This document shows, in pieces, positions 10,238 to 43,650 of a stretch of DNA of 64,000 bases (the stretch's first letter is position 1; each line of letters starts with the position of its first letter). Under the pieces are notes generated by a model. The model was not told the origin of the DNA. It was given only the letters and a program-made list of their open reading frames with translations, and did not search any database. Origin of the DNA: Peptococcaceae bacterium UBA5752 (lineage in GTDB: Bacteria > Bacillota > Dehalobacteriia > UBA4068); assembly GCA_002419055.1 (NCBI GenBank), contig DIFI01000009.1, positions 69,875 through 133,874 of the forward strand, given 5' to 3'. The position numbers and the translations under genes were made by a program.

Positions 10238-11545
10238 ATGGCCACACAGATGTTAAAAATAGATGAGGCTATTCTGGAAAGCAATAATATCATTTGTCGC
10301 CAGATTAGCCGCCTGGGTGAATCTACAAGAGGCGAGGTTTCACAGGAAGTCTTAGAATCGCTAAGGCATTTTGTGGAGCATATCCTCCTTAAGGTTTATG
10401 CCGACGGCGAGGATATAGAAGATACGCAGGAAAATGTTAAGGCGGCGGTTAAACATGCAAAGAGTAACTCCAATTTGAAACATTTGTCACGGTTTCACCA
10501 TTTTCTGCAGGTGTCTGTTTCTCATCGTGCTTTAAAAGAGCAAAATGCCGAACGGCTGATGCTGAAATATTATGAGTATCTGTTGCAGATTAGGAATTTC
10601 TTGCACGATAGTTATTCTCTTGATGTGCTTGCTAACCTTGAGCAGTTCCCATTGGAAACAGATGAAAGTCTGATAGAGTATTATAAAAAAATCGCTGAAA
10701 AGGTTAGTAAATACAATACTCCGATACACGGCGAGTTCCGTTATGACCGTTTTTACGTGCAGAAAATCAAGCCGTTTTTTGTTGGCGGTAAAATATATTA
10801 TGAGGTAGCTTTTGTCCCCGCAAATGACAATGCGAGTAAAACTGATCGTATTATCGCTTTTACCGATATAGAGATAACAAGCTTTTATGCCGTAAAGTTT
10901 GCCATAGCCAACAACAGTGTAGAAATCCTCGGCAAACATATGCCCATCCGCATTATTGTGGACTGGGAAGTAAACATTCGACCTTGCGAACTAAAAAACT
11001 TCACAGCAATTATTGAAAGGACGCCCAGAGAGTATGGCAAAGCTGAACAACGCGAACTTAGCCGATATCTAACTGAAACCGGGCTTAGCCTTTCGGAAAT
11101 CATTATGTTTTCTGATGAGGCATTTGCGGCAGTTCGTGACCGTATTGTGCCTAAAACAGAATCCACGCACTTCTTTGATTGCCTCGAAACTTGCAGGAAT
11201 CTTATAAATCAGAAAGCAAACGGTAGCAATATACTGCGATATTTGCTTCACCATATGACAAATAGAATTATTAAAAGTCAATATAAAGAACACTATAAAT
11301 GGAATTATTATGAAGATCGTTATGAATATGTAGGCGGAAATTTTAAACTTTCAAATCTTTATTTAGCTTATGAATGCATTCCGTTCGATGATATGCCGTT
11401 TTGCTCGGGTTTGAAAAGTCACGTTCCGAGCCTTTCGGATTTGTTTGAATGCCTCGATGCAAGCGGTCGTGAACACGAGGTTTTAGCGTGGATATTAAAA
11501 ACAATACAGAACAGCAAGGTATGCTCTTTACTCCGCTCGAAATAA
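10238..11545 (+). CDS. Hypothetical protein, 435 aa: N-terminal helical region, central beta-rich region, Cys-rich C-terminus
   Basis: A long ORF with an AAAGAGG RBS. It sits in an AT-richer block than the upstream module. Its 3' end overlaps the downstream helicase gene. Confidence 0.7.
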   Translation: MATQMLKIDEAILESNNIICRQISRLGESTRGEVSQEVLESLRHFVEHILLKVYADGEDIEDTQENVKAAVKHAKSNSNLKHLSRFHHFLQVSVSHRALKEQNAERLMLKYYEYLLQIRNFLHDSYSLDVLANLEQFPLETDESLIEYYKKIAEKVSKYNTPIHGEFRYDRFYVQKIKPFFVGGKIYYEVAFVPANDNASKTDRIIAFTDIEITSFYAVKFAIANNSVEILGKHMPIRIIVDWEVNIRPCELKNFTAIIERTPREYGKAEQRELSRYLTETGLSLSEIIMFSDEAFAAVRDRIVPKTESTHFFDCLETCRNLINQKANGSNILRYLLHHMTNRIIKSQYKEHYKWNYYEDRYEYVGGNFKLSNLYLAYECIPFDDMPFCSGLKSHVPSLSDLFECLDASGREHEVLAWILKTIQNSKVCSLLRSK

Positions 11546-34385: not shown

Positions 34386-36251
<1,866 letters not shown>

Positions 36252-36766: not shown

Positions 36767-37564
36767 ATGGGAAAAGTAATAGTCATCACTTCCGGTAAAG
36801 GCGGCGTCGGTAAGACTACCACAACTGCTAATATCGGTACGGCGTTGGCCATGTTGGATAAAAAAGTTGTAATGGTTGATACTGACATCGGCCTACGTAA
36901 TCTTGATGTAGTATTGGGCCTGGAAAACCGCATTGTCTATGATATAGTTGATGCGGTGCGCGGAAATTGCCGTCTTAACCAGGCATTGATTAAGGATAAG
37001 CGTTTTGGAAATATGTATCTACTGCCGGCTGCTCAAACTAAGGATAAAACGGCTGTCACTGAAGAACAGATGGTTGAGCTTTGCGATAAGCTTAAAGACG
37101 AATTTGATTTTGTGATCATTGATTGCCCGGCTGGTATTGAGCATGGTTTTAGAAATGCTATTGCCGGTGCGGAAGAGGCAATTGTCGTCACTACGCCCGA
37201 AGTATCTGCTGTGCGTGACGCCGATAGGATCATCGGTTTATTGGAAGCTGCTGAAGTACGTTCGCCACGGCTGATTATCAACCGCATCCGTACCAATATG
37301 GTACAAAGCGGCGATATGATGAGCGTTGATGATATACTTAGTATTTTAGCCGTGGAGCTGCTCGGTATCGTTCCTGATGACGATGCGATCATCATATCAA
37401 CCAATCGTGGTGAACCGACAGTAATGGATGATGCATCCCAGCCTGGACAAGCATATCGTAATATTGCACGGCGGCTATGCGGTGAAGAGGTACCCCTAAT
37501 GACGTTGACCGCTAAGAAGAACAGTTTCTTTAGTCGTCTCAAGAGCTTGTTCAGTGGCGAATAA
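36767..37564 (+). CDS. minD: Septum site-determining ATPase MinD
   Basis: The deviant Walker A GKGGVGKTT and a C-terminal amphipathic helix are present. Confidence 0.95.
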   Translation: MGKVIVITSGKGGVGKTTTTANIGTALAMLDKKVVMVDTDIGLRNLDVVLGLENRIVYDIVDAVRGNCRLNQALIKDKRFGNMYLLPAAQTKDKTAVTEEQMVELCDKLKDEFDFVIIDCPAGIEHGFRNAIAGAEEAIVVTTPEVSAVRDADRIIGLLEAAEVRSPRLIINRIRTNMVQSGDMMSVDDILSILAVELLGIVPDDDAIIISTNRGEPTVMDDASQPGQAYRNIARRLCGEEVPLMTLTAKKNSFFSRLKSLFSGE

Positions 37565-37577
37565 AGGGGGAAAAGAT

Positions 37578-37853
37578 ATGGGTATTGTCAGCTTTCTCAC
37601 TCGCTTTTTTGGCAAGGATGACGAGTTAAGCAGCAAAAACGTTGCTAAAGAACGGCTGCGTTTAGTGCTGGTGCATGACCGCCTTGATATCTCCGAGAAA
37701 ATCATGGAAAACCTCCGTGAAGATTTGATCGCAACTATCGGCAAGTATATGGAAATAGATCAAAGTGCTCTTGAAGTTTCATTGAGTAGGGAAGAAGATG
37801 GTGTTGCTTTGCTTGCCAATATCCCCATTATGAACGTACGGCGTACTTCGTAA
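37578..37853 (+). CDS. minE: Cell division topological specificity factor MinE
   Basis: The N-terminus MGIVSFLTRFFGK and ~91 aa length fit. The ATG at 37578 follows GGGGGAAAAG. Confidence 0.85.
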   Translation: MGIVSFLTRFFGKDDELSSKNVAKERLRLVLVHDRLDISEKIMENLREDLIATIGKYMEIDQSALEVSLSREEDGVALLANIPIMNVRRTS

Positions 37854-37864
37854 ATAAGTAACAA

Positions 37865-37900
37865 AAGGCTGTCTTTTAAGGCAGCCTTAATAAATTATTG
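37865..37900 (+). terminator. Putative rho-independent terminator after minE
   Basis: A 9-bp stem AAGGCUGUC/GGCAGCCUU (one G-U pair) with loop UUUUAA, followed by a U-rich tail. Confidence 0.45.
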
Positions 37901-37907
37901 GTATGTT

Positions 37908-38246
37908 TTGTTCGTAAGAATGGTGTTTATATCGCCATGTTGTGAAGAGAACGTATGCGTTTTATTTATTTCACGAGATAAAGGATTTATTGAATATATT
38001 GATAAACTTCAATCTGAGTTTTTAGAATTTACTGGAAAAGAAGTTGAGATTAAAGATAACAGTTATTATAAAGTATTGTTAGGAGATGAAGAAGAACCAG
38101 TAAATGAAGAAAGAGTAAATGAAGAAACAGAAGAAGAAGCAGTAAAAGAAGTTCCCAATAAAGTGCTTTCTGATATAGAGAAAGCATCATTAAGGAAACT
38201 GATTAAAGATGTATTTTCAATATCTGTAATGTCTTTCTCTATATGA
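37908..38246 (+). CDS. Hypothetical acidic protein (112 aa)
   Basis: The ORF is followed by a strong hairpin terminator. It has a Glu-rich centre. Confidence is low. Confidence 0.35.
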   Translation: MFVRMVFISPCCEENVCVLFISRDKGFIEYIDKLQSEFLEFTGKEVEIKDNSYYKVLLGDEEEPVNEERVNEETEEEAVKEVPNKVLSDIEKASLRKLIKDVFSISVMSFSI

Positions 38247-38287
38247 ATATAAATATTTTGTTAGTTAAATTTGTCTATTGTACAGTA

Positions 38288-38318
38288 GATGGTATAGCAA
38301 AGCTATACCATCTTTTCG
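38288..38318. terminator. Rho-independent terminator (perfect 11-bp stem)
   Basis: GATGGTATAGC-AAA-GCTATACCATC followed by TTTTCG. Confidence 0.65.
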
Positions 38319-38345
38319 TAAATATAAGAAATTAGATATTTTGTA

Positions 38346-38453
38346 TTATTGTTCGATCATTCGGTATCCAACGCCGACTTCCGTTACAATATATTTAGGC
38401 TCGCCGGGATTTGCTTCCAGTTTTCTGCCGATATTGGCCATGTTGACCCGCAA
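38346..38453 (-). pseudogene. kdpE: Remnant of kdpE (last ~35 codons of a KdpE-like OmpR-family response regulator)
   Basis: The minus-strand translation ...LRVNMANIGRKLEANPGEPKYIVTEVGVGYRMIEQ* aligns with the E. coli KdpE C-terminus LRIYMGHLRQKLEQDPARPRHFITETGIGYRF. The upstream residues of the ORF are unrelated to a receiver domain. Confidence 0.7.
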
Positions 38454-38564
38454 ATCTGTAAATATGAAAATTACGCAGACTGCACTAAAGGTGAATACAG
38501 CAAAAGCGTATTTTTTGGTTATTTGCTCCACGCTTTACGGCTATAGAAGTCTACAGCTGCCCTT

Positions 38565-38699
38565 TTACACGGGTGTAATTATTCGTGATAATAATACTTT
38601 TTGACCGGACATGACCTTGTAAATATATATCCCCAGGGGTATGGACAAGCCGATCAGCAATAAGATAAAAACAATTTCCTCAATCACAATTCTGCTCAT
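38565..38699 (-). pseudogene. kdpA: Remnant of kdpA (first ~34 codons only), running into unrelated sequence
   Basis: MSRIVIEEIVFILLLIGLSIPLGIYIYKVMSGQK matches the KdpA N-terminus (B. subtilis ...ILVAKPTGIYLEKAFQG). It diverges after K34 and stops 10 codons later. Confidence 0.7.
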
Positions 38700-38781
38700 A
38701 ATCTCTCACCTTTGGCCAATACGTAAAACAGATAGATAAGCAGAGGGCGATGACCGCTGCCACTGTCAGCACAACATTCAT
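38680..38781 (-). CDS. kdpF: KdpF-like small hydrophobic peptide (33 aa) overlapping the kdpA start
   Basis: A GGAG RBS is followed by MNVVLTVAAVIALCLSICFTYWP.... Position and overlap with kdpA match kdpF, though the C-terminus is atypical. Confidence 0.45.
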   Translation of the reverse strand: MNVVLTVAAVIALCLSICFTYWPKVRDYEQNCD

Positions 38782-39150
38782 AAACAGATCACTCCATTCT
38801 TCTTGCTTGCTCCTCTTACTTTATTAAGTAAACCAGCGGTTGTTGAGACTCATCCGGTGATTTTACTATAATTGTTTTCCGAAAAAGACGGTGTGAAGGA
38901 ATAAGAATTATAAATAAATAAAACGTAAAGATGAACTTTAAAAAGGATTTACCGTGAAAAAACTTATATATTTGTTTATTCATGCCACAAAAAGGTGGTC
39001 CTTTTTGTATGTGTTTTTGTTTCAGATAGGTGCTGAATAATCTGTCGGATATGGTATTCTTGCTGGGGTATTTGTTGTTATTTGCTTAAAGGTATTGGCT
39101 ATTATAGCAGAGAAGAACCACTGCAAACCAAATTTGCGGAGGTTTAAATA

Positions 39151-39453
39151 ATGCTTCAAAGGTATTCTTTTTTTAAGGTAGTTGGCGGGGTATTTATAAT
39201 CATTTTGATCTCTACAATGGTCTGGTTCCTTGCCGGCGGTGCTGACTATTGTTGTAACCGTTTATATCTTCGTCGCCAAAATCAGATTGAATTGTTGGAA
39301 AACCAACAACAGCTTTTATCTGAGGCATTATGTAATTATTATATTGGAACAGGGGATTACATCACTACCGCAAATTTAATAGGACAAGTTCGGCAAACTC
39401 AAGATTCAATAAATTCTATTGAATGGCAGATAGAGATTGCAGAAGATTTTTAA
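39151..39453 (+). CDS. Hypothetical small membrane-anchored protein (100 aa)
   Basis: One N-terminal TM helix with a Gln-rich helical tail. Confidence is low. Confidence 0.35.
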   Translation: MLQRYSFFKVVGGVFIIILISTMVWFLAGGADYCCNRLYLRRQNQIELLENQQQLLSEALCNYYIGTGDYITTANLIGQVRQTQDSINSIEWQIEIAEDF

Positions 39454-39507
39454 TTTAATCGGCTTGCTTGTATAACTTATAAATTAAAGATAATATTAAA
39501 TATATAC

Positions 39508-39536
39508 TTGAATTTATGATATAATTGTGATATCAT
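39508..39536 (+). promoter_or_regulatory. Putative sigma-A promoter for the SPFH gene
   Basis: TTGAAT, 17 nt, then TGaTATCAT (extended -10). Confidence 0.35.
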
Positions 39537-39588
39537 AATCATACCAATTTGTACTGAAAAATTATGCAGTGACTTTAGGAGGATTTTA

Positions 39589-40482
39589 ATGGATAAGGAA
39601 AATAAACTAATTGCAGAAAAACCTGTTTGGAAAATTAACGGCTTTCTTGGTTTAATTTTAGTCTTGGTTTTTTTGGGGTTGAGCATCTACTGCTTTTATT
39701 TACTTGCAGTTATCGAAGGAGTACAGTCTGCTACCCCTTATATTGCAGGTGCTATTATCAGTATGATCATTTTCATTATATTGGCTACCGGATTAGTAAT
39801 TATTCAACCAAATACTGCTGCGGTAGTGGTCTTCTTCGGTAAATATATTGGCTGCATTCGTCAAAACGGTATATGGCTCACCGTACCTTTTTCGACTAAT
39901 AAAAAAGTTTCACTGCGGATACGTAACTTTAACAGTGAAAAGCTTAAAGTAAATGATATTAACGGTAACCCAATAGATATAGCCGCTGTGATTGTTTTTC
40001 GGGTAATCGATTCCGCCAAAGCTCTACTTGATGTAAACAATTACGAGGAATTTGTTGAGATCCAAAGTGAAACATCGTTGCGTCATGTAGCCGCGCAATA
40101 CCCCTATGATAACTATGACGAGGGCTTCTCGCTGCGTTCCAATGCCGATGAAGTATCGGCTCAGCTGATGCAAGAAACAGCTGCTCGGTTGAATTTAGCG
40201 GGAGTCGAGGTAATAGAAGCACGTCTGACGCACCTTGCCTATGCAACAGAGATCGCCAGCGCTATGCTCCAGCGTCAACAGGCTTCGGCAATATTGGCGG
40301 CACGGCGGATTATTGTTGACGGCGCTGTTGGTATGGCGACGATGGCTATTGAAGATTTGCAAAAGCATAGTTCGCTTGAGCTGGATGATGAGCGCAAGAT
40401 TAATATGATTAACAACATTATGGTTACGATCATCTCTGATCGTTCATCGCAGCCCGTAATCAATGTTGGGAGTATGTATTAA
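39589..40482 (+). CDS. SPFH/band-7 (stomatin/flotillin-like) domain membrane protein
   Basis: An N-terminal TM region and an SPFH core with a C-terminal coiled coil. Confidence 0.85.
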
Positions 40483-42111: not shown

Positions 42112-43650
42112 TTACATCAAAGGAGATATTAAACGGATTACTTCTTGGATTAGACGCGTAAAAAGATTGTGTTTGCAATCCTCTCTTTGAACAAGATACG
42201 AATTACTAACGGTTTCTAATATATCTTTTTTTATTTCGGGTATTATTTTGCTGTTATAGAGACGAACGGCGCATTCAAAATGCAGATAAAAACTGCGGTA
42301 ATCTAGGTTTAATGTACCAACTACTGCAGTTTTGTCATCAGAAATAATTGATTTGCTATGAACGAAACCTTTTTTATATTCATAAACCTTAACTCCGCCT
42401 CTGATAAGTTCCCTATAATAGGAGCGGTTTGCAATGTGGGTTATATATTTGTCCCAGTGTCCGGGTGTGATAATCCTTACATCTACGCCGCTTTTTGCCG
42501 CCAGTTTTAATGCGGTTAACATATTATCATCGGGAATTAAATAGGGTGTAGTTATAAATACATACTGTTTAGCGTTATTGATAATTTGAAGATAGACTTG
42601 TTCTCCGATATTTTCCTCACCAATAGGGTTGTCACAAAACGGTTGGATGAAACCATCATTAGGATATTCTTTAAAATCATTAACAGGTGGAAGATATACA
42701 GTTAACTGCTCAGAGAAATTTAGACTAAAACTCCACATTTGGAGGAACATCAACACAAAACTGCGGACAGCAAGTCCTTTAATCATTATGCCGGTATCTT
42801 TCCAATATCCTAACGGAGATTTAAGATTAATATATTCGTCAGCTAAATTGATGCCTCCGGTAAAAGCAACCTTGCCGTCAATGACAGTAATTTTCCGATG
42901 ATCTCTATTATTTTGAATAACGCTCAAAAAGGGGCGGAAAGGGTTAAAAGCACTACATTCAATACCCATAGCTCTTAATTGCTGTGGATAATCCGCAGGT
43001 AGGCGGTTAAAACAACCAAAATCATCGTAGAGTATGCGCACCTTAATGCCGACGGCAGCTTTTTGACGCAAAATATCGAGTATGGCATTCCACATTACAC
43101 CTTCCTCGATAACATAGTATTCCATGAATATATATTTTTCAGCTTTATTTATTTCATCTATTAAGCTCTTAAACATGGTTTTGCCCTGAGAAAAATACTC
43201 ATACTCAGTGTGGTTGTAAACGGGGAAACCGGCAAATTGTTGCAAAAAATTAATCTGTGTTGCTAACTCTGTAGCCTTGTTTTTTGCTGTATCCAGGGCA
43301 AAAGGGTTATTGTTTAATAGAGAGTTGCTCTGCTGCACCATCGTCATAAAGCGACGGCTAAAGTGATGAGTTGATGATTGAATTCGGTATAGTAAATATA
43401 ATAAACCACCAAACACAGGGAAGATCAAAATTAAGAAAATCCAAGTTAGTTTATATGGGTGTTTTTCTCTTGGGCTGCCGACAATATACAGCGCCACAAA
43501 CAGACTGATCAGTGTTAACGCCACGTTAATCCAGGAAGACAATGCGTTAGTGCTTTCAATAATATAAATTAAAGCAGCTATTTGGATAAGCAGCAGTATT
43601 ATAACTAAGAGACGGTGTCTTAATAAACTACGCAATAAATTTTTTTGCAT
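42112..43650 (-). CDS. cls: Cardiolipin synthase
   Basis: Two N-terminal TM helices and two PLD HKD motifs (HRKITVIDG, HSKSIISDD). Confidence 0.9.
   Translation of the reverse strand: MQKNLLRSLLRHRLLVIILLLIQIAALIYIIESTNALSSWINVALTLISLFVALYIVGSPREKHPYKLTWIFLILIFPVFGGLLYLLYRIQSSTHHFSRRFMTMVQQSNSLLNNNPFALDTAKNKATELATQINFLQQFAGFPVYNHTEYEYFSQGKTMFKSLIDEINKAEKYIFMEYYVIEEGVMWNAILDILRQKAAVGIKVRILYDDFGCFNRLPADYPQQLRAMGIECSAFNPFRPFLSVIQNNRDHRKITVIDGKVAFTGGINLADEYINLKSPLGYWKDTGIMIKGLAVRSFVLMFLQMWSFSLNFSEQLTVYLPPVNDFKEYPNDGFIQPFCDNPIGEENIGEQVYLQIINNAKQYVFITTPYLIPDDNMLTALKLAAKSGVDVRIITPGHWDKYITHIANRSYYRELIRGGVKVYEYKKGFVHSKSIISDDKTAVVGTLNLDYRSFYLHFECAVRLYNSKIIPEIKKDILETVSNSYLVQREDCKHNLFTRLIQEVIRLISPLM

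Follow-up and report, generated by a model that had tools for sequence, protein, structure and literature searches.

Remnant of a kdpFABC-kdpDE potassium-transport operon between minE and an SPFH gene in an uncultured Peptococcaceae bacterium

The decay of the kdpFABC/kdpDE potassium-transport locus has a described precedent in Francisella tularensis SchuS4, in which kdpA and kdpE are pseudogenes and kdpB, kdpC and kdpD remain, the locus being complete in F. novicida (PMC6584805). On the fate of bacterial pseudogenes in general, Kuo & Ochman 2010 (PMC2916853) reported that these are rapidly removed by deletion and that shared pseudogenes are rare; where relatives do share one, the inactivating lesions often differ between them, a sign of independent events. 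The deletional bias itself was described by Mira, Ochman & Moran 2001 (cited in PMC2916853).

The locus considered here lies in a 64,000-nucleotide stretch of DNA from Peptococcaceae bacterium UBA5752 (the window), and a sequence-only reading had described it as what is left of a kdpFABC-kdpDE operon after the loss of the greater part of kdpA and of all that lay between it and the kdpE 3' end. This description holds, with a single junction and no kdpB, kdpC or kdpD in the 64 kb. As the reference for an undeleted locus we used L005 (contig_26 of ERZ21831111), which has a complete kdp operon, its kdpA being split by one frameshift. Based on the comparison of the remnant with this reference and with the remnants found in relatives, the locus is very probably a non-functional deletion relic of an operon that was intact in an ancestor; in a sister lineage the same operon was in all likelihood lost in a separate event, by another deletion.

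Anatomy of the kdp remnant

The remnant occupies 436 bases of the minus strand (38781-38346) and is made of three pieces in the canonical order (F, A, ..., E), all of them collinear: kdpF, then kdpA, then kdpE. The proposed succession (the start of a KdpF-like peptide, then the N-terminal part of KdpA and the C-terminal part of KdpE) is therefore borne out, both by profiles and by tblastn. When the L005 KdpA, KdpB, KdpC, KdpD and KdpE proteins were compared by tblastn with the whole window (the check that had been proposed), only KdpA 1-81 and KdpE 203-237 were matched, adjacent to each other, and no similarity to KdpB, KdpC or KdpD was found anywhere in the 64 kb. KdpA 1-81 aligned to 38699-38460 (E=1e-17, about 46% identity) and KdpE 203-237 to 38453-38349 (E=1e-13, 83% identical), so that chance similarity, one of the two things that together would have refuted the earlier idea, does not account for the fragments: both similarities are far beyond chance. 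Complete kdpA, kdpB, kdpC, kdpD and kdpE ORFs are absent. Judged by homology and gene order, the remnant belongs to the kdp locus family without being a functional Kdp system. A codon map gives one frame from the kdpA start (38699) through to the kdpE stop (38346), which reads MSRIVIEEIVFILLLIGLSIPLGIYIYKVMSGQKVLLSRIITPV, a stop, KGSCRLL, a stop, P, a stop and SVEQITKKYAFAVFTFSAVCVIFIFTDLRVNMANIGRKLEANPGEPKYIVTEVGVGYRMIEQ before the final stop.

The kdpF remnant (38781-38696, minus strand; defined by profile and homologue comparison) has a broken frame. Where a 33-aa KdpF-like peptide had been reported, only the first 13 codons (MNVVLTVAAVIAL) are KdpF; the remainder of that ORF is out of frame, with 4 nt missing at the Gly14 codon (about 38743) relative to the intact KdpF of L005. 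The KdpF C-terminus, LLIYLFYVLAKGERL with its stop, sits in the shifted frame after this lesion, and its TGA (38698-38696) overlaps the kdpA ATG, as it does in intact operons. In an NCBIfam profile search the 33-aa ORF as read matched no KdpF model, while the frame-corrected peptide (MNVVLTVAAVIAL joined to LLIYLFYVLAKGERL) matched NF011342 (E=2e-4) and TIGR02115 (E=1.7e-3), with scores below the curated cut-offs of both models. The corrected peptide resembles the intact L005 KdpF, MGTILVISAFIALGLLIYLFYVLFRGENL, and the C-terminal 15 residues are identical to it at 12 positions (about 80%). A small kdpF gene upstream of kdpA and overlapping it is, in other words, present only once the frameshift is corrected.

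The kdpA remnant comprises codons 1-80 of about 560 (38699-38460, minus strand) in a single frame. With the stops masked, it matches the Pfam KdpA family PF03814 with 34.8 bits (cut-off 22.6, E=7e-9), relic residues 10-80 aligning to profile positions 2-73 of 548; against four KdpA N-termini, tblastn gives 46-56% identity over 81 aa with one single-codon gap (E from 1e-17 to 5e-27), the remnant having one codon fewer than its homologues. The sequence-only reading had kept only the first ~34 codons and had seen the frame run on into unrelated sequence. Both points fail, since the homology extends in the same frame to codon 80 (38460) and the supposedly unrelated sequence corresponds to kdpA codons 45-80, interrupted by stops. 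The codon table and the alignments place these three stops in frame between 38567 and 38535, namely TAA at codon 45 (38567-38565), TAG at codon 53 (38543-38541) and TAA at codon 55 (38537-38535), the first aligning to E45 of the homologues. A compensated double frameshift was considered for the clustered stops and rejected: it is the main frame that aligns best with the homologues (P43, R50, L51, E58), and the stops are therefore true nonsense substitutions.

The deletion junction was located by tblastn, alignments and the codon map at 38459-38454 (minus strand), that is, at codons 81-82 (Thr-Asp), which are assignable to neither gene; kdpA ends at 38460 or above and kdpE starts at 38453 or below. 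This lies at the extreme edge of the interval in which a junction had been expected (38453-38600), because the supposed spacer of about 150 nt before kdpE is in fact decayed kdpA; there is no spacer, and the kdpE tail joins kdpA directly and in frame. Taking L005 as the yardstick, about 7.4 kb is missing, beginning with kdpA codon 81 and ending with kdpE codon 202. The proposal that one internal deletion removed it fits the single junction, although successive deletions would look alike.

The kdpE remnant consists of the last 35 codons plus the TAA stop (38453-38346, minus strand; profiles, tblastn and divergence counts) and makes up the wing of the winged-helix domain (L005 KdpE residues 203-237). 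It matches the C-terminal end of Trans_reg_C with 26.3 bits (cut-off 26.2), and its best NCBIfam match is KdpE NF007820 (positions 192-224 of 225, E=1.8e-6), which scores 27.6 bits against 20.2 for the next family with only 35 residues to compare. Together with the 83% identity to the L005 KdpE, this confirms the earlier assignment of the last ~35 codons, and the database proteins nearest to the tail in a protein search also carry the name KdpE. No mutation disables the tail; its one radical replacement puts G for R in the conserved LRRKLE motif. When the N-terminus of KdpA and the tail of KdpE were used as queries in protein searches, only short fragments came back and no close intact homologue; the fragments are mostly contig ends or frameshift-split genes, in unrelated contexts.

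Genomic surroundings and a second assembly

The mreBCD, PBP2 and minCDE genes are encoded on the plus strand and end at 37853. The kdp remnant is convergent with the minE/orf112 genes and divergent from orf100-SPFH. Within the plus-strand cluster, the PBP2 homologue (34386-36251) ends with ten glutamines (QEQQQQQQQQQQ, 36220-36251); its tblastn match to Peptococcaceae bacterium UBA4068 (L006), the relative discussed below, reaches only to residue 611, and the glutamine tail may thus be peculiar to the window lineage. Between the minE stop and the conserved hairpin described next lies a 431-bp AT-rich segment (37856-38286; 28% G+C vs 43% for the window), which contains a 112-aa ORF (37908-38246) with a Glu-rich C-terminal half. 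This ORF had no family match and the segment has no repeat elsewhere in the window; it is absent in UBA4068 and in a second related contig, L013, and it looks like a lineage-specific insertion.

A hairpin at 38288-38318 (12-bp stem, dG -18.5 kcal/mol) separates the convergent minE/orf112 genes from kdpE. It had been taken for the retained terminator of the kdp operon. The hairpin does exist, but its TTTT is found on the plus-strand side only, the minus-strand side continuing as CTACTGTACAAT; the T run that an intrinsic terminator of kdp would carry on the transcribed minus strand is thus on the other strand, and the consensus terminator scan did not call the hairpin. The UBA4068 homologue of this hairpin is flanked on either side by A and T runs and is bidirectional in appearance, the window segment 38287-38457 aligning to UBA4068 10335-10501 at 79%. 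In the window, to judge by its flanking runs, the hairpin appears better suited to the convergent plus-strand minE/orf112 transcript than to kdp.

Upstream, about 370 bp (39150-38782, minus strand) represent the retained kdp upstream region, shared with the divergent orf100-SPFH genes. This region contains a promoter-like site at 38897-38868 (TTCACA-18-AATTAT, a consensus match only), which falls in a block conserved in UBA4068 (window 38849-38900 vs 10853-10904, 81%). The E. coli kdp promoter requires phosphorylated KdpE, and by analogy the remnant would be transcriptionally silent. An Rfam scan of 37500-40000 for riboswitches or leader RNAs (for example the c-di-AMP riboswitch) found no family, the sole output being a sub-threshold chance match to a snoRNA. 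In the same kdp/orf100 intergenic region, the consensus scan also gave a terminator-like plus-strand hairpin at 38984-39008 (ACAAAAAGG-TGGT-CCTTTTTGT, with a T-rich tail), upstream of which there is no plus-strand gene.

A second assembly bears on the reality of the junction. Over 20.9 kb, the 513-kb JGI metagenome contig L001 differs from the window by a single mismatch and a single gap (99.99% identity), and the kdp relic in it is the same. The junction might otherwise be thought an assembly artefact (a chimeric join or a collapsed metagenome region) in an organism that really has an intact operon, since the window comes from metagenome-type data and the kdp loci of L002, L004 and L016 show frameshift-split genes of the kind typical of error-prone assemblies. 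Yet the two near-identical assemblies agree on the relic, the three stops and the kdpF frameshift are independent signs of decay, and relics occupy the same slot in the independent data sets L006, L013 and L014. The shared relic and the slot relics together make an artefact very unlikely, and we give it next to no probability.

The single gap between L001 and the window falls in a PLD-type cardiolipin-synthase-like gene, which is one 512-aa ORF in the window (42112-43650) and, because of this gap, is split into ORFs of 174 aa and 358 aa in L001 (12524-14063). The split probably stems from an error in sequencing or assembly, or from polymorphism between strains; the general genome decay that it might suggest was rejected, the gene being intact (512 aa) in the window.

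Relics in related genomes and the timing of the loss

Relatives were found by a MinE scan of species-representative genomes and by a metagenome scan, and the close ones comprise only UBA4068 and the short contigs L013 and L014. In UBA4068, MinE is 91-92% identical to that of the window and the flanks have 77-85% nucleotide identity; L013 and L014 are identical to each other over 696 nt and stand at a dS of about 0.23 from UBA4068. All three contain kdp debris between minE and orf100-SPFH. Kdp thus appears to have sat at this position in relatives, where relics now mark it; none of the relatives recovered by MinE, SPFH, metagenome and protein searches had an intact operon in the minE/SPFH interval.

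UBA4068 retains a frameshifted kdpF, about 50 decayed kdpA codons, and KdpE from about residue 148, the latter broken by deletions of 26 bp and ~65 bp and by a stop; residues 187-237 are clearly present (E=2e-21), and a stop codon lies just upstream of the tail. L013 and L014 are without the kdpE tail, and L013 has also lost kdpF and the promoter (about 170 bp). What L013 keeps is kdpA codons ~11-52 joined to QLVTLAGKETHLAPIKY, a peptide that matches KdpE 148-164 (identity to the L004 KdpE at 12 of 17 residues, a score reached by none of 5000 shuffles), although Pfam alone gave no confirmation of this segment. Reading the UBA4068/L013 peptide PIETGIYK...HLTPIKY as kdpA throughout was rejected on the same shuffle test, its second half being KdpE 148-164. 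The junction common to UBA4068 and L013 is therefore KdpA ~52 to KdpE ~148, while that of the window is KdpA 80 to KdpE 203, and the window kdpA codons 53-80 have no counterpart in UBA4068 or L013. Since each side has retained sequence missing from the other, the one deletion cannot have arisen from the other. These relics have been eroded stepwise by small deletions of 7, 26, ~65 and ~170 bp.

Two further features of these relics deserve mention. At the UBA4068/L013 junction (L013 ~248-280), Tyr-Lys occurs at the matching place in KdpA (GLYK) and in KdpE (NYKK), and that deletion may have used a short microhomology (TATAAA). The kdpF frame is lost at the same Gly14 codon in the window (38740-38745) and in UBA4068 (~10745-10755), by 4 nt in the former and 1 nt in the latter with a net shift of -1 in both, which could go back either to one old lesion common to both or to a site prone to mutation, for example a run of G.

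The divergence between the window and UBA4068 is informative about when the operon was lost. Their flanking genes have dS of 0.9-1.5 (about 1.1) and omega of 0.02-0.13. A kdpE tail that was already dead at the time of the split would be expected to differ at about half of its sites, with no codon-position bias. The two tails differ at 14 of 105 nucleotides (87% nucleotide identity), with 8 synonymous and 5 non-synonymous differences on 23.5 and 81.5 sites, respectively (dN 0.064, omega about 0.14); the synonymous excess has a binomial p=0.0027, in a test that covers 35 codons and 13 substitutions only. The kdpF halves likewise show an excess of synonymous change (p=0.018), and the differences in the kdpA remnant are distributed 12/9/18 over the codon positions. 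The divergence of the tail is of the coding type. Set against a flank dS of about 1.1, this argues that the operon was functional long after the split, and that, having been kept under purifying selection for most of the time since, it was lost separately and late in each lineage.

These numbers also weigh on the competing idea of one ancient deletion in the common ancestor (from kdpA codon at least 80 to kdpE codon at most 148), followed in each lineage by a secondary deletion abutting the junction. All three lineages do keep the kdpA 5' end and the kdpE 3' end in the same slot, the kdpF frame is broken at one and the same codon in both, and small secondary deletions clearly occur in these relics. 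The scenario nevertheless needs three events, two of which must end exactly at the old junction, where independent losses need two; it also predicts a neutral tail, and neither the few differences seen, nor their synonymous excess, nor the coding-type divergence of kdpF and kdpA agrees with this. An ancient single deletion is thus already disfavoured, and we hold it to be unlikely.

Under the preferred reading of independent losses, the common ancestor of the window organism and the UBA4068 lineage would have had a complete kdpFABC-kdpDE operon on the minus strand, pointing towards minCDE and away from orf100-SPFH, an ancestral state that we infer from three relics only. In the window lineage, about 7.4 kb (kdpA codon ~81 to kdpE codon ~202) would have been removed, in one deletion or in a series leaving one junction, joining the two gene ends in frame; a single step may be supposed on the evidence of the one junction. 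This remnant also carries the three nonsense codons, the one-codon loss in kdpA and the 4-nt deletion in kdpF. The sister lineage would have lost the operon independently, via a deletion from kdpA ~52 to kdpE ~148, its remnant being eroded later by small deletions.

In the sequence-only reading the loss was called recent, and this is tenable in a relative sense only. It followed the split from UBA4068 (flank dS ~1.1) and the tail has barely decayed; its only clearly lineage-specific replacement is the R to G change in LRRKLE, which suggests a short neutral period. On the other hand, the three nonsense codons, the one-codon loss and the kdpF frameshift have already accrued. The loss in the UBA4068/L013 lineage predates their split at dS ~0.23. 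The kdpA stops of the window (three within 11 codons, out of 80) exceed what would be expected from the near-undecayed kdpE tail, so that the two parts may have died at different times: kdpA may already have been out of action, with kdpDE still in use, when the deletion occurred, the deletion may have had several steps, or the mutations may be clustered. In UBA4068, the tail (10393-10497, vs window 38349-38453) has about 5-7 changes of its own vs about 12 expected if it had been neutral since the UBA4068/L013 split; chance, rate variation or residual constraint could be responsible.

The good state of the tail also raises the question of whether part of the remnant is alive, either as the 61-aa ORF at 38531-38346 (in which a transmembrane helix from kdpA is followed by the KdpE wing) or as a promoter with a kdpF/kdpA leader, expressed and selected as a small protein or as a regulatory or antisense RNA. 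The fusion is in frame, the kdpE tail is free of disabling mutations and better conserved between the window and UBA4068 than the remaining relic, the UBA4068 branch of the tail is somewhat better kept than a simple neutral estimate, and gene callers do predict the 61-aa ORF (P0006). Against this, no Shine-Dalgarno-like sequence precedes GTG 38531 or ATG 38444, UBA4068 has its stop codon immediately before the tail, and L013 and L014 have lost the tail wholly, hence it is dispensable; additionally, the window replaces R by G in a conserved motif, no Rfam family occurs in the region, and the time in which kdpE was functional accounts for the synonymous excess. Partial function of this kind is accordingly highly improbable in our view. 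The chance that the fusion is a newly born small membrane protein (the 61-aa ORF), or that the kdp promoter and leader were co-opted for regulation, is slighter still; were either true, it would account for the kdpE tail being better preserved, in two lineages, than any other part of the relic. For annotation, the consequence of the preferred reading is that the called 61-aa "Trans_reg_C" protein and the 33-aa ORF are pseudogene debris.

Beyond the close relatives, the adjacency of minE and orf100-SPFH is not maintained. The next-nearest relatives by SPFH (67-70% identical) have different upstream genes (Aminotran_4, DUF4911) and no kdp, and more distant relatives lack the adjacency altogether; in L007-L012 there is no kdp within 10 kb of minE, nor SPFH there. 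An exact-protein look-up of the window MinE gave no record. Among the other kdp loci collected, that of L002 (10001-14090; GCA_964619815.1, CAZUGK010000017.1) has a split kdpA (129 + 403 aa), a kdpB that was not called, and a 636-aa product with the KdpD N-terminal domains, Response_reg and Trans_reg_C, as if kdpD and kdpE had been fused by deletion. This locus may be decayed, real decay and assembly error being alike possible.

Comparison with described systems

With respect to gene content, the window locus resembles the canonical Bacillota operon of L005 in the F-A-B-C-D-E order on one strand and in the overlap of the kdpF stop with the kdpA start, and differs from it in being without kdpA from codon 81 to its end, kdpB, kdpC, kdpD and kdpE codons 1-202, what remains being interrupted. 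Its likeness to Francisella lies in a lineage-specific decay of kdpFABC/kdpDE that involves the same two genes, kdpA and kdpE, with close relatives differing. In Francisella, however, the lesions are point lesions and the operon is physically present, whereas in the window about 7.4 kb is deleted and the two ends are fused in frame; moreover, Francisella has an intact relative in F. novicida, and for the window none was found.

What the relatives add is that the sister lineage appears, from the incompatible junctions, to have lost the same operon independently and by a different deletion, after a long retention of Kdp in both. That two sister lineages lost it separately suggests that high-affinity K+ uptake became dispensable in this uncultured Peptococcaceae group, and a relaxed need for such uptake may have been the cause of the loss. 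The window locus itself is an ordinary, textbook bacterial deletion relic and opens no new biological question. Its value is that of a clean example of how an operon is discarded, in which the end genes are brought together by a large deletion and the remainder is then worn down by small ones, with three lineages caught at different stages. In this, the window and the UBA4068/L013 lineage follow the pattern of Kuo & Ochman, including the stepwise erosion by small deletions, and the UBA4068/L013 relic has persisted across a dS of ~0.23, which is rather long compared with the Salmonella data in PMC2916853.
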